Virus record (IMG/VR): IMGVR_UViG_2713896904_000005
DNA: 5,471 nucleotides
Source of the DNA: a virus
Taxonomy: Duplodnaviria > Heunggongvirae > Uroviricota > Caudoviricetes
Strand: one strand, 5' to 3'
The notes beneath the pieces were generated by a model that worked only from the letters and a program-made list of their open reading frames with translations, was not told the DNA's origin and searched no databases. A program made the translations under genes and the position numbers. Shown in pieces: positions 2,944-5,471 of the stretch (the stretch's first letter is position 1; every line of letters begins with the position of its first letter).

Positions 2944-3282
2944 CTATTTCCCTGAATTTACGACGAAACTGTTCGAGCGGGCTGAAGCACTCATGCTCAT
3001 AGCCTTCACGGAGGTAGATAACCCGTTGTGTTTCCGGCTCCCAACGAATGACTCTGACGGGCACTCCGTAGTGATCTTTGAACCAGCGGTTAACTTGTCG
3101 CAAAGGACTGTCTCCTTCTGCCGGTTGAAATCACCCACAGCCCACTCTGCAAAGCTGTGGGTTACAATTTCCCTGTCACCTGGTACATTCACTGCATAGC
3201 AATACTCCACCTTCGCTTTTCCACCCGGTACAGGAAGCGCAATCAGTTGCGAGCGACGGTAGTGTGTTGTTAAACTGTTCAT
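2944..3282 (-). CDS. Hypothetical protein (112 aa), no recognisable domain
   Basis: ORF between the CII-like and O-like genes. ATG 3282..3280 overlaps the upstream stop (ATGA) and is preceded by GGAGA (rc of 3292..3296). Position and coupling argue for a real gene. Confidence 0.55.
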
Positions 3283-3842
3283 GCGTTAGTTTCTCCACAG
3301 TCACGACACGCCACGGCGCCCGGAGCTGCACACTCGCGGGCGTCATTACTTTCTGAAATGCAAAAGATTTTGTAGACCAGTGCTGCATGCTCCTGCAGCT
3401 TCGAAATTGAGAGATACAGCTCGTCGTTAATTGCTGTCTTCTCATGCGGTTCCACTACACCGTCTTCGATTGCTGAACGAATCTGTTTTGAATAACTGCC
3501 GATCTGTTCAATGACTTCCAGCAGACGCTGGTTAATATCGGCGTTGTCCACATCCTCGACGTCAGGAAGAGACACAAAGACGCCATTTGCAGACTGCGCC
3601 ACAGCGTCAGCAATGAAGTGAGTTCCACCAGCACGTTGCAAAATCATTGCCCATCCCAGCGGGAAAATCTGATCGCCATCGGCACGAAGGCGGTTAAATA
3701 ATGCGTTCTCTGTTACATCCAGCCAGTCAGCTGCTTCAGCGTAACCACCCGGCAACTTTGCGATAGTTTTTCTGACAGCTTTCACGTACCACTCAGGCTG
3801 TTTTTCTACTTTCCAGTGATGCTTACCCACGGTTAGCCTCAT
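3279..3842 (-). CDS. CII-like phage regulatory protein (187 aa; CP76/YdaT-like position after cro)
   Basis: Second gene of the rightward operon, 31 nt after the cro-like stop. N-terminal half has an HTH-like stretch ([42 protein letters not shown]) loosely resembling lambda CII. C-terminus carries four Cys (C-x9-C-x7-C-x2-C). No clear SD before ATG 3842, and no in-frame alternative start upstream before a stop at 3900..3902. Confidence 0.6.
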
Positions 3843-3873
3843 CGTTCTGTGGTTAAAAATTGAAAGTGTTCTG

Positions 3874-4074
3874 CTAATCTTTCGGATAGATATCCGGTCT
3901 TAAGTCAGATTTCGTAATTGCACCTGATGTGTATTGCTCAAGTTTTTTAGCCAGCACAAAACTGGCTTTTTTATAGCCATTGAAAACCAGCCGTAAGTAG
4001 CCAGGTGTTGAGCCAACTTTTCCGGCCAACTCGCCCTGCTGTTCTTTGGTTAAAGAGTCCCAATACGCTTTCAT
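3874..4074 (-). CDS. Cro-like helix-turn-helix repressor (66 aa)
   Basis: MKAYWDSLTKEQQGELAGKVGSTPGYLRLVFNGYKKASFVLAKKLEQYTSGAITKSDLRPDIYPKD is a small Cro/YdaS-type HTH protein with the characteristic C-terminal ...LRPDI motif. Divergent from the CI-like gene. ATG 4074 has GGAGG (rc of 4085..4089) upstream; the track's 4098 start has no SD and falls in the operator region. Confidence 0.8.
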   Translation of the reverse strand: MKAYWDSLTKEQQGELAGKVGSTPGYLRLVFNGYKKASFVLAKKLEQYTSGAITKSDLRPDIYPKD

Positions 4075-4164
4075 ACAATATGTACCTCCGGTGTACATAT
4101 TACATGATTAAAATGAACCTTCAAGATACTTGTACCTTAACGGTACAAGGGTTTTAATTTCGTT
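4075..4164. promoter_or_regulatory. Divergent promoter/operator region (OR-like) between cro-like and CI-like genes
   Basis: Two 19-bp inverted-repeat sites: 4080..4098 ATGTACC-tccgg-TGTACAT (6/7 half-site symmetry) and 4130..4148 TTGTACC-ttaac-GGTACAA (perfect). Candidate cro promoter on the minus strand: -35 TTGAAG (rc of 4119..4124), 16-bp spacer, -10 TAATAT (rc of 4097..4102). Candidate cI promoter -10 TTTAAT at 4153..4158, just before ATG 4165. Confidence 0.6.
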
Positions 4165-4839
4165 ATGAAAACAATCCATGACATCCGGCGGTCTAACGCC
4201 AGAAAACTGAGAGATGGTGTTGGCGGGAATTCTTCCTTTGCCACTATGATTGATCGCGAGCCAACCCAGACCAGCAGGTTTATGGGAGATGGTGCTACTA
4301 AAAATATCGGTGACAGCATGGCACGACACATCGAAAAATGTTTCGACCTGCCTGTAGGATGGCTCGATCAAGAACACCAGACAACGAACATCACAAAAAA
4401 ACCTGATGTTTCAATCACTAATAAACAAATCACATTAGTCCCTGTCATATCATGGGTACAGGCCGGAGCATGGAAAGAAGTTGGATATTCTGAGGTTGAT
4501 TTGAGCACAGCAGAAACGTATCCCTGCCCTGTACCCTGTGGGGAAATGACTTATATCTTGCGGGTGATAGGTGATTCAATGATTGATGAGTACCGCCCGG
4601 GAGACATGATTTTTGTCGATCCTGAAGTACCTGCCTGCCACGGTGACGACGTTATTGCATTGATGCACGATACAGGTGAAACCACCTTCAAAAGGTTGAT
4701 AGAAGATGGGACACAGCGTTATCTCAAAGCGTTAAACCCAAACTGGCCTGAGCCTTACATTAAGATCAACGGTAATTGCTCTATAATTGGTACTGTGATT
4801 TTCTCAGGAAAACCAAGAAGATACAAAATCAAAGCCTAA
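4165..4839 (+). CDS. CI-like phage repressor with N-terminal HTH and C-terminal LexA-type S24 autopeptidase domain
   Basis: 224 aa. HTH region (FATMIDREPTQTSRF...MARHIEKCFDLPVGWLD). Probable cleavage site VQAG-AW (compare lambda CI VQAG-MF). Ser nucleophile in LRVIGDSM and Lys in TTFKRL, matching the LexA/CI Ser-Lys dyad context. Divergent from the cro-like gene. Confidence 0.9.
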   Translation: MKTIHDIRRSNARKLRDGVGGNSSFATMIDREPTQTSRFMGDGATKNIGDSMARHIEKCFDLPVGWLDQEHQTTNITKKPDVSITNKQITLVPVISWVQAGAWKEVGYSEVDLSTAETYPCPVPCGEMTYILRVIGDSMIDEYRPGDMIFVDPEVPACHGDDVIALMHDTGETTFKRLIEDGTQRYLKALNPNWPEPYIKINGNCSIIGTVIFSGKPRRYKIKA

Positions 4840-4851
4840 TCAATGTTTATG

Positions 4852-4874
4852 AACCTGCTTCGGCAGGTTTTTTT
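4852..4874 (+). terminator. Rho-independent terminator downstream of the CI-like gene
   Basis: Stem AACCTGC (4852..4858), UUCG tetraloop (4859..4862), stem GCAGGTT (4863..4869), then a T run through 4874, 13 nt after the CI stop. Confidence 0.75.
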
Positions 4875-4878
4875 ATAC

Positions 4879-4912
4879 TTGACAATGTACCCTTTAGATA
4901 CATAATGTACCC
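4879..4912 (+). promoter_or_regulatory. Strong sigma70-type promoter (pL-like) with embedded operator
   Basis: -35 TTGACA (4879..4884), 16-bp spacer, -10 CATAAT (4901..4906). The spacer and -10 contain the 19-bp site ATGTACC-cttta-GATACAT (4885..4903), same architecture as the two OR sites. A further ATGTACC half-site lies at 4905..4911. Confidence 0.65.
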
Positions 4913-4990
4913 AAGAGAAACAACAAACAGGCAGGACGCCCACGAAGTAGCCGCCTGGGGCATATGAAGTCCAGGATGATTCGTTAGCAA

Positions 4991-5028
4991 CAAAAAAGCG
5001 CCCTACAGGACGCTTAGCTCTTTAACAA
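4991..5028. promoter_or_regulatory. Leader hairpin plus boxA-like element (GCTCTTTAACAA)
   Basis: Inverted repeat AAGCGCCC-taca-GGACGCTT (4996..5015). On the minus-strand RNA it forms an 8-bp stem with one G-U pair followed by U6, so it is terminator-like for leftward transcription. On the plus-strand RNA the stem has a C-A mismatch. Immediately 3' on the plus strand, GCTCTTTAACAA (5017..5028) matches the rrn/nut boxA consensus as I recall it. Confidence 0.4.
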
Positions 5029-5073
5029 TCTGGTCCCCATCAACAAGTAACTGATAACTTGAGGAGGTGTGAA

Positions 5074-5280
5074 ATGCACAAAACAGAACCAAAAATCGTC
5101 GCACCCGGATACACAAATGAGGAAATTTACGAGTGGATGGCAAAGAAGCTGGCAGCTATAAACCAGCTTCGTGAAGTGCTGTCTTATCGACAGGAAACAA
5201 TAGACTCCTTAAAAAAACTGGATCAGGAAATCACGGTTTTATCACAGGATGTTACTTTAGATATTGTGCAGACAAATTAG
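5074..5280 (+). CDS. Small hypothetical protein (68 aa), first ORF downstream of the pL-like promoter
   Basis: ATG 5074 preceded by a strong SD GAGGAGG (5061..5067) at 6-nt spacing. Product MHKTEPKIVAPGYTNEEIYEWMAKKLAAINQLREVLSYRQETIDSLKKLDQEITVLSQDVTLDIVQTN is predicted helical/amphipathic with no family I recognise. The track's 5059 start is a TTG that falls on the SD itself. The antisense strand is full of stops. Confidence 0.6.
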   Translation: MHKTEPKIVAPGYTNEEIYEWMAKKLAAINQLREVLSYRQETIDSLKKLDQEITVLSQDVTLDIVQTN

Positions 5281-5471
5281 GATCCCATTCATTTTCGTCA
5301 AAATCATCAAAGTGATGAATTTGTGATCTCCAGTCTCGATAATCTAAAAATTTCTGGGCGGTTACGCTTATTTTATCAAGCGTGAGTTCATCCTGAATTG
5401 AAAGAAGAAGTTCATCTGAACCGCCCCGGGTTTCCTGGAGAGTGTTTTATCTGTGAACTCAGGCTGCCAGA

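Follow-up and report, generated by a model that had tools for sequence, protein, structure and literature searches.

A YdfC-family gene at the start of the early-left operon of an e14/SfIV-type prophage and its convergent overlap with an ECs1072-family gene

What does a lambdoid prophage make first from its early-left promoter when the position held by N in lambda carries a short frame of another kind? The question is raised by a 5,471-nucleotide stretch of caudoviricete DNA (IMG/VR record IMGVR_UViG_2713896904_000005; the whole stretch analysed is termed the window), in which an open reading frame (ORF) encoding 68 residues extends on the plus strand from an ATG at position 5074 to a TAG at 5278–5280. 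The window is 98–99.7% identical to Shigella phage SfIV and to many Escherichia coli prophages and, by these alignments, is the immunity and replication region of a lambdoid prophage of the e14/SfIV/CPS-53 type from Escherichia or Shigella. An original prediction, made from the letters alone, had described the ORF as the strongly translated first early-left gene, with a short helical product of no recognisable family that resembled cIII- or Kil-type proteins in style. The ORF and the protein sequence quoted there are confirmed exactly. Missed in that reading were the membership of the product in the YdfC family, the presence of a convergent partner gene of the ECs1072 family, the nature of a leader hairpin as a minus-strand terminator and the status of the gene as exchangeable cargo.

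The ORF is almost certainly a real and conserved YdfC-family gene (phrog_1744; RefSeq WP_000549626.1, “hypothetical protein”) under purifying selection. Its product matches the phrog_1744 profile over the full length (residues 1–68 of 68; E 4.8e-34), and dN/dS in the ORF frame is 0.10 between the window and phage Kati, 0.16 between two Serratia copies and 0.25–0.35 for distant pairs. The Shine-Dalgarno (SD) sequence GAGGAGG noticed in the original prediction lies at 5061–5067, 6 nt upstream of the ATG, and an SD-like motif is found 5–8 nt ahead of the ATG in every homologous lineage. Because the profile match is full length, the homologues align without gaps, dN/dS is low and the SD is conserved, the ORF is not a chance frame. 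Strong translation would be expected from the SD, while the predicted local RNA structure around the start is unremarkable (z ~-1.4). The ORF is carried by ~410 of 5,426 complete E. coli genomes, and 15 of 15 full-length E. coli matches sampled across the ranking are annotated as an intact coding sequence. Conservation and synteny in related prophages, which had been proposed as the refutation test, were examined and the ORF was found intact in its place.

Two kinds of variant were observed within the ORF. A run of seven A residues lies at 5211–5217, and the truncated or frame-shifted protein clusters (e.g. P0034–P0043), which derive from draft assemblies and form a small minority of clusters, all depart from the intact sequence after residues 47–49, that is, at this run; slippage, pseudogenisation or errors of sequencing could account for them. 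A TGG replaces the TAG stop in some E. coli, which lengthens the protein to 103 residues (cluster P0006, 25 contigs) and is a synonymous proline change (CCT to CCC) in the ECs1072 gene on the opposite strand.

Comparison by BLASTP with YdfC of E. coli K-12 (b1573, Qin prophage) revealed 39% identity over 66 residues with no gaps (E 9e-17), and K-12 YdfC itself matches phrog_1744 (E 1.6e-39). By these alignments the ORF product, for which no family had been recognisable by eye, is a full-length member of the YdfC family. An exhaustive HMMER scan identified 32 representative relatives displaying 30–52% identity, most of them near-equal in length and aligned without gaps, the usual length in the family being ~65–78 residues. 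The family alignment defines an N-terminal motif, M-x-K-x-E-P-K-I-I-A-P-G-Y-[ST]-[DN]-[DE]-E-[IL]-x-x-W-M-x-x-K, in which E5, W21 and K25 are invariant and all present in the window protein, while beyond this motif only a heptad-like hydrophobic pattern is kept. AlphaFold2 predicts an extended or disordered N-terminus followed by a single helix over residues 15–67 (pLDDT 85), in agreement with the short helical product first proposed, and the sole matches of a PDB sequence-profile search are designed antiparallel coiled coils. Long relatives of 128–171 residues contain the same N-terminal module joined to at least three mutually unrelated C-terminal extensions. Scans of the ORF with Pfam, NCBIfam and PADLOC gave nothing above noise, no model in them covering the family.

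YdfC is a known but uncharacterised family of which the ORF is a new member, and the statement that its function is unknown holds for the family as a whole. The function of YdfC in K-12 is given as unknown (PMC5069750), no functional study of ECs1072, WP_000549626, ydfC or ydfABC was found in the literature, and a 2026 preprint takes YdfC just as a starting point for directed evolution in yeast. In the window and in Serratia, Rahnella and metagenomic loci, the family member is the ORF that comes first behind an S24 repressor gene and a pL-like promoter, and Qin ydfC is situated in the dicB operon, which is likewise early-left and repressor-controlled; remote members in Salmonella phage ST64B and Klebsiella phages, found in the late region, are the exception. 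The window protein and Qin YdfC share homology over their full length (68 versus 72 residues), the same PHROG, the N-terminal motif, the helix and a repressor-controlled early-left operon. The two genes differ in that Qin ydfC stands third in the dicBF operon, preceded by ydfA and ydfB and followed by the dicF region, with no convergent ECs1072 partner, whereas the window ORF is the first after pL and overlaps its partner. Taken by itself, the ORF is an ordinary member of a catalogued, functionally blank family, ydfC being part of the E. coli “y-ome”; the novelty resides in its context, a conserved overlap that ties it tail to tail to a gene of the ECs1072 family, itself just as blank.

The partner, an ECs1072-family gene (NF033230, phrog_5286), is located on the minus strand, convergent with the ORF, and its stop codon at 5252–5254 places the last 29 nt of the ORF within both genes. 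The intact gene encodes 144 residues, of which the window retains the 3′ part (5252–5416, the last ~55 codons); the minus strand of 5252–5446 matches positions 91–143 of the ECs1072 hidden Markov model (HMM) with an E value of 2.8e-22. An IS1203-type insertion cuts the gene at ~5416, next to the intact 68-residue ORF. Homology to SfIV and NT1F25 ends at 5416, the remainder matches thousands of copies of an insertion sequence (IS) annotated as IS3-like, IS1203 family, and a terminal inverted repeat with the end of this element lies within the ECs1072-family gene at 5412–5471. It is because the IS end cuts the gene that it is hard to see in the window. The ORF had been taken for the only open frame on either strand of its region, and this part of the original observation, together with the missing family, falls, while the ORF, SD, promoter and helix stand. 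The ECs1072 protein is predicted to be soluble and all-helical (pLDDT 82). It displayed no informative fold or profile match and no match to Pfam SieB, and neither it nor the ORF product was matched by PADLOC or, among viral structures, by Foldseek. The sole hint of expression is that ECs1072 of strain Sakai was scored as differentially expressed in uninduced culture (PMC2241611).

Genomic contexts of homologues, gathered protein by protein, revealed how consistently the two genes travel together. In complete E. coli genomes their distributions are essentially co-extensive (410 with the ORF, 419 with the ECs1072 gene). Every short YdfC-like gene in the first position behind an S24 repressor has an ECs1072-family gene that converges on it and overlaps its 3′ end. 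This arrangement was found in E. coli, Escherichia albertii, Serratia (with two immunity types), Rahnella victoriana and a further locus, L024, the overlap measuring 29 nt for E. coli, 41 nt for Serratia, 59 nt for Rahnella and 80 nt for L024. The two families diverge in parallel, with identities between genera of 28–44% for the YdfC-like proteins and 26–33% for the ECs1072 proteins. In the two Serratia loci the YdfC-like proteins are 90% and the ECs1072 proteins 67% identical, while the adjacent cI repressors, which have been exchanged, share only 12%.

A second genomic setting was identified in Salmonella phage ST64B and several Klebsiella phages, where the interval from the Q region to the holin gene contains an ECs1072-like ORF in antisense orientation. 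The ST64B protein Sb50 and the Klebsiella protein GP45 are remotely homologous to YdfC (QPYFFNPGMTxEQLEDWL...; hhalign probability 95%, E 2e-8), and their genes converge on the ECs1072-like ORFs with overlaps of 71 and 95 nt. The pair thus recurs in a second, unrelated genomic slot, and with one polarity throughout: relative to the lytic operon, the YdfC-like gene is sense and the ECs1072 gene antisense. That the two products are functionally linked is, on this evidence, an even bet.

The slot occupied by the pair in the window lies at the very start of the pL operon. Early transcription that is “leftward” in lambda corresponds here to the plus strand, running rightward from cI. An S24 cI-like repressor gene (YmfK; Peptidase_S24) occupies 4165–4839 on the plus strand, and a terminator scan placed an intrinsic terminator of this ymfK-type gene at 4851–4874, a rho-independent terminator being annotated at the equivalent site of SfV. 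Directly after the repressor gene and its terminator, a putative pL-like sigma-70 promoter (TTGACA-16-CATAAT, 11 of 12 consensus positions) extends over 4879–4906, with operator-like AATGTACC repeats at 4884–4891 and 4904–4911 covering both hexamers. GTAC motifs and palindromes related to these repeats are also present in the cI/cro intergenic region. The ORF starts ~160 nt beyond the promoter and is the first downstream of it, as originally described. In phage Kati, which carries a different repressor, similarity to the window starts only at ~4922, just beyond pL, the sequence upstream being replaced; this break fits an immunity-specific pL and operator followed by a common leader.

The leader (4922–5033, plus strand) is common to prophages with differing repressors and differing cargo genes, as revealed by alignment, and a 48-nt segment of it (4986–5033) is present in ~1072 E. 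coli genomes, the 68-residue ORF being missing from the majority of them. On the other side of the slot, ~130 nt upstream of the ECs1072 gene are common to ~2190 genomes, including K-12 e14, where they lie between ymfI and ymfH. By these alignments, conserved flanks enclose a slot at the start of the pL operon that is filled by alternative cassettes, namely the ORF with the ECs1072 gene, single minus-strand genes, e14 ymfJ together with the ymfI on which it converges, and SfV orf33, and the ORF belongs to an exchangeable cargo cassette and not to the phage backbone. The e14 cassette (L010, 5498–6085; L028) is allelic to that of the window and sits in the same slot behind an identical repressor (WP_000848748.1). 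There, pL-sense ymfJ (102 residues) converges on ymfI (113 residues) with an overlap of 63 nt, both genes being as uncharacterised as the pair described here. In contrast to the window, e14 lacks the hairpin and boxA leader segment described below, and its proteins belong to other PHROGs; YmfJ and YmfI were tested as homologues of the YdfC-like/ECs1072 pair and none was detected. Two non-homologous cassettes sharing a convergent architecture suggest a common regulatory logic. Lambda has N at the corresponding position, where it converges on sieB, an exclusion gene expressed from the prophage, and the region beside cI is a documented mosaic hotspot for abortive-infection genes with self-immunity, e.g. 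rexAB and bstA (PMC8585504). The start of the pL operon in e14/SfIV-type prophages, which reside in a large share of E. coli genomes, is on this evidence a hotspot for cargo.

Other occupants and a feature of the right flank were noted in passing. At L011 and L012, a minus-strand gene (3069–3584) directly upstream of the shared minus-strand terminator encodes a 171-residue coiled-coil plus Cys-rich protein (phrog_1244), and at L013 a minus-strand gene (3262–3741) upstream of the same terminator encodes a predicted membrane protein of 159 residues (phrog_6315); neither gene has been characterised, and both are candidates for a role in exclusion or defence. Outside the window, at L002 6870–6935 (minus strand), the 5′ untranslated region of ECs1072 contains a tandem direct repeat, CTGGTTAT(T)CCCCAACAAC, in two copies just ahead of the start codon, in the right-hand flank of the slot that many genomes share. 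The repeat may serve as a regulator site or an RNA-binding site.

Within the leader, a hairpin with an 8-bp stem (5015–4996 on the minus strand) followed by a U-run makes 4986–5015 an intrinsic terminator for minus-strand, cargo-gene transcripts. Read on the minus strand, the stem contains one G.U pair, has a predicted energy of -12.1 kcal/mol and is followed by UUUUUUGUUGCU, while the plus-strand version has a C.A mismatch in place of the G.U pair, reaches -7.5 kcal/mol and lacks a U-run. This asymmetry identifies the hairpin as primarily a minus-strand terminator. The same hairpin is found ~50 nt past the stop codon of the phrog_1244 gene at L011 and L012 and, in a third prophage (L013), 200 nt beyond the phrog_6315 gene. 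A second, weaker terminator-like hairpin of the minus strand was observed at 4927–4943 (GTGGGCGTCCTGCCTGT, then TTGTTGTTTC), between the first hairpin and pL, in a part of the leader also common to SfV and e14; together the two hairpins may insulate pL and cI against antisense transcription.

Immediately after the first hairpin, the plus strand contains AGCTCTTTAACAA (5016–5028), a candidate boxA that matches the rrn-type consensus TGCTCTTTAACAA at 12 of 13 positions and is the sole one-mismatch match in the window; an exact 12-mer match would be expected by chance ~7e-4 times in 5.5 kb on both strands. The site follows ~100 nt of pL leader and the hairpin at 4996–5015, in the rrn order boxB-boxA. 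It is conserved alongside the hairpin in L011, L013 and Kati, and wherever the 48-nt element of the ~1072 E. coli genomes occurs. The leaders of Serratia, Rahnella, e14 and SfV lack it. In some prophages with the boxA leader, pL transcripts must cross at least 0.5 kb of untranslated antisense cargo, and the site might confer N-independent, Nus-factor-dependent anti-termination. The hairpin and boxA were also considered as a conserved nut site tied to the 68-residue ORF; this was rejected, since prophages lacking the ORF also carry the element, and the leaders of Serratia, Rahnella and e14 do not contain it.

The arrangement suggests, by analogy with the SieB/Esc and BstA/aba systems, that the YdfC-like protein acts in the lytic phase as an antagonist or regulator of the ECs1072 product and so provides self-immunity, a reading to which a probability of roughly 0.35 is assigned. 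Taken on its own, the proposal that any functional link between the two products takes the form of antagonism or self-immunity is tentative, and clearly less secure than the link itself. From the anatomy of the locus we infer an expression pattern, a protein-protein interaction and a possible defence activity along the following lines. The ECs1072 gene would be transcribed independently on the opposite strand as far as the hairpin at 5015–4996, and since the transcript would end there it would be antisense to the whole ORF including its SD (from 5280 down to ~4990). In the lysogen pL would be repressed and only ECs1072 expressed, as moron-like cargo in a known hotspot. When pL fires, upon induction or infection, convergent transcription and an RNA duplex could reduce ECs1072 while the YdfC-like protein is made; as a coiled-coil oligomer, and via its conserved N-terminal motif, the latter might bind the ECs1072 protein and neutralise or retune it. 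The lytic cycle of the carrier phage would then be spared, as a cognate self-immunity or “escape”, and partnerless YdfC copies (Qin, Evi and the long forms) could be orphan counter-defence genes. In its fullest form the proposal is of an undescribed two-gene prophage system, with ECs1072 a lysogen-expressed anti-phage or exclusion effector, the YdfC-like protein an antidote made only in the lytic phase, the ~290-nt antisense overlap a reinforcement and unpaired YdfC an orphan counter-defence. It is doubtful in this form; if true, it would give K-12 ydfC, a y-gene, its first function.

The comparison with the SieB/Esc/sas region of P22 and lambda rests on a shared layout, in which a pL-sense gene, the first of its operon, converges on a gene of the opposite strand; in lambda the latter is the prophage-expressed sieB, here the counterpart is moron-like and the antisense overlap extensive. 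In P22, the phage escapes its own SieB exclusion through a phage-made factor and antisense RNA (PMC12197685, PMC7067206). The systems differ in that SieB has no sequence relationship to the predicted soluble, all-helical ECs1072 protein and in that Esc is an in-frame product of sieB itself, whereas the YdfC-like protein is encoded by a separate convergent gene; exclusion by ECs1072 and escape through the ORF are here hypotheses. BstA/aba is a prophage accessory locus beside the repressor in a mosaic hotspot, where a cognate element spares the phage's own lytic cycle (PMC8585504), and the present cassette lies likewise beside the repressor gene in a hotspot. In contrast, aba is a 63-bp DNA element and not a protein, bstA is co-oriented with cI, and neither has homology to the pair. 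The value of the proposal is that it offers a cheap and concrete hypothesis for two orphan families, namely that they are partner proteins, possibly of defence and self-immunity.

Several observations weigh against this proposal. Pairing is not obligatory: no ECs1072 partner accompanies YdfC in Qin, in Evi, in the PPompW phages or in the long forms of 128–171 residues, and an ECs1072-like gene is found by itself in L026, in a Rac-like context. In the window the partner gene has already been destroyed by the IS, yet the ORF is intact. The physical overlap alone could hold both genes linked. A consensus promoter scan found none for the ECs1072 gene, although its orientation, slot and minus-strand terminator fit a prophage-expressed gene near the repressor. 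The minus-strand terminator is not conserved at the equivalent place in Serratia and Rahnella, being lineage-specific. A “Rosetta-stone” fusion of the two families was sought in the C-terminal extensions of the long forms and rejected, these being unlike ECs1072 (hhalign probability <=2%).

Some of the same observations would be accommodated if the YdfC-like protein were an independent early modulator of the host, or an anti-defence protein, whose N-terminal motif targets either a host protein, conserved but non-essential, or a defence protein with no relation to ECs1072, with the ECs1072 gene a mere moron neighbour linked physically. Across genera, conservation is strongest in the first 25 residues, the helix keeping its heptad pattern only; the module recurs on the unrelated C-terminal extensions; the family persists in partnerless contexts; and the gene stands at or near the promoter-proximal end of the early-left operon in all pL contexts. 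An absence of toxicity is also in keeping with such a role, since induction of the K-12 dicBF operon with ydfABC intact and dicF and dicB deleted causes no growth inhibition (PMC5069750). Against it, the pair with the same convergent overlap recurs in the wholly different slot of ST64B and the Klebsiella phages and endures to ~30% identity while neighbouring genes are swapped. Moreover, other E. coli cassettes in the slot contain no YdfC gene, so the function is not one of the backbone. This explanation is the main rival and is rated only a little below the proposed self-immunity.

A cIII-like role, in which the coiled-coil peptide would shield the CII-like protein YmfL (3279–3842) from FtsH and bias the choice between lysis and lysogeny, corresponds to one of the likenesses first proposed and is improbable. 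The protein is indeed short, amphipathic and made from pL, in the style of lambda cIII, the active part of which is an amphipathic helix, and most pL-proximal loci also carry a cII gene of the CP76 type; the best, non-significant hhalign stretch even falls on the essential region of cIII (YTNEEIYEWMAKKL versus CPSESLLERITRKL). However, the two are not homologous (hhalign against lambda cIII, probability 0.3%, E 0.18), none of 24 family members matches Pfam Lambda_CIII at E <=1, and genomic position and distribution differ as well. Prophages of the Qin and L024 types harbour family members but no CP76 cII gene, ST64B has its member in the late region, and the ORF is missing from sister E. coli prophages that share cI, cro and cII with the window.

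A role at the level of transcription, either as a substitute for N acting at the boxA leader or by translation alone shielding the pL transcript from Rho ahead of antisense cargo, is more improbable still. It would suit an ORF that occupies the N position downstream of the hairpin and boxA-like sequence, and also the untranslated antisense RNA of at least 0.5 kb that the pL transcript of sister prophages must cross. The protein, as had been recognised from the outset, is nevertheless not N-like: it has no arginine-rich motif, its N-terminus (MHKTEPKIVAPGY) contains no arginine, and hhalign against lambda N gives a probability of 0.1%. The same leader serves prophages with no ORF at this position, and the Serratia and Rahnella homologues lie in loci without boxA. 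Purifying selection at the protein level and the conserved motif argue against a role of translation alone.

The weakest explanation, a Kil- or DicB-type toxic inhibitor of division or of another essential host process, has in its favour a small early-left protein encoded in a stretch of the operon that can hold Kil and DicB genes, and can be set aside given the harmless induction of ydfABC noted above (which concerns the K-12 homologue and not the window protein; PMC5069750), an hhalign probability of 0.06% against lambda Kil, the lack of any Pfam Kil match in 24 members and the fact that the regions found in filamentation screens are accounted for by dicB/dicF and ymfL/ymfM (PMC6206680). Of the original interpretation, what remains is a genuine small helical first gene of the pL operon that is not N-like, the comparisons with cIII and Kil having to be given up. 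Even if the proposed antagonism of the ECs1072 product by the YdfC-like protein is wrong, a clean annotation results, that of a real YdfC-family gene which is not cIII, Kil or N.

The remainder of the window comprises minus-strand genes on the far side of the repressor, encoding RusA (790–1179), a protein with a LexA DNA-binding domain (1176–1535), a PerC/YfdN-like protein (1502–1996), an O-like replication protein (1993–2934), a 112-residue ORF (2944–3282; phrog_1170, no Pfam match), the CP76-type CII-like protein YmfL (3279–3842) and the Cro-like protein YmfT (3874–4098). An Rfam scan of 3800–5471 at a permissive threshold gave chance-level matches only. The 112-residue ORF resembles ymfM of K-12 e14, annotated in RefSeq as a cell division inhibitor, in its size and its position after the ymfL-like gene. 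Within the O-like gene, at 2505–2640, repeated units of the type GACGGGTCAGA(T/A)T(T/C)TGA encode a repetitive DPSKSDASKS stretch and resemble origin iterons, as in lambda O.

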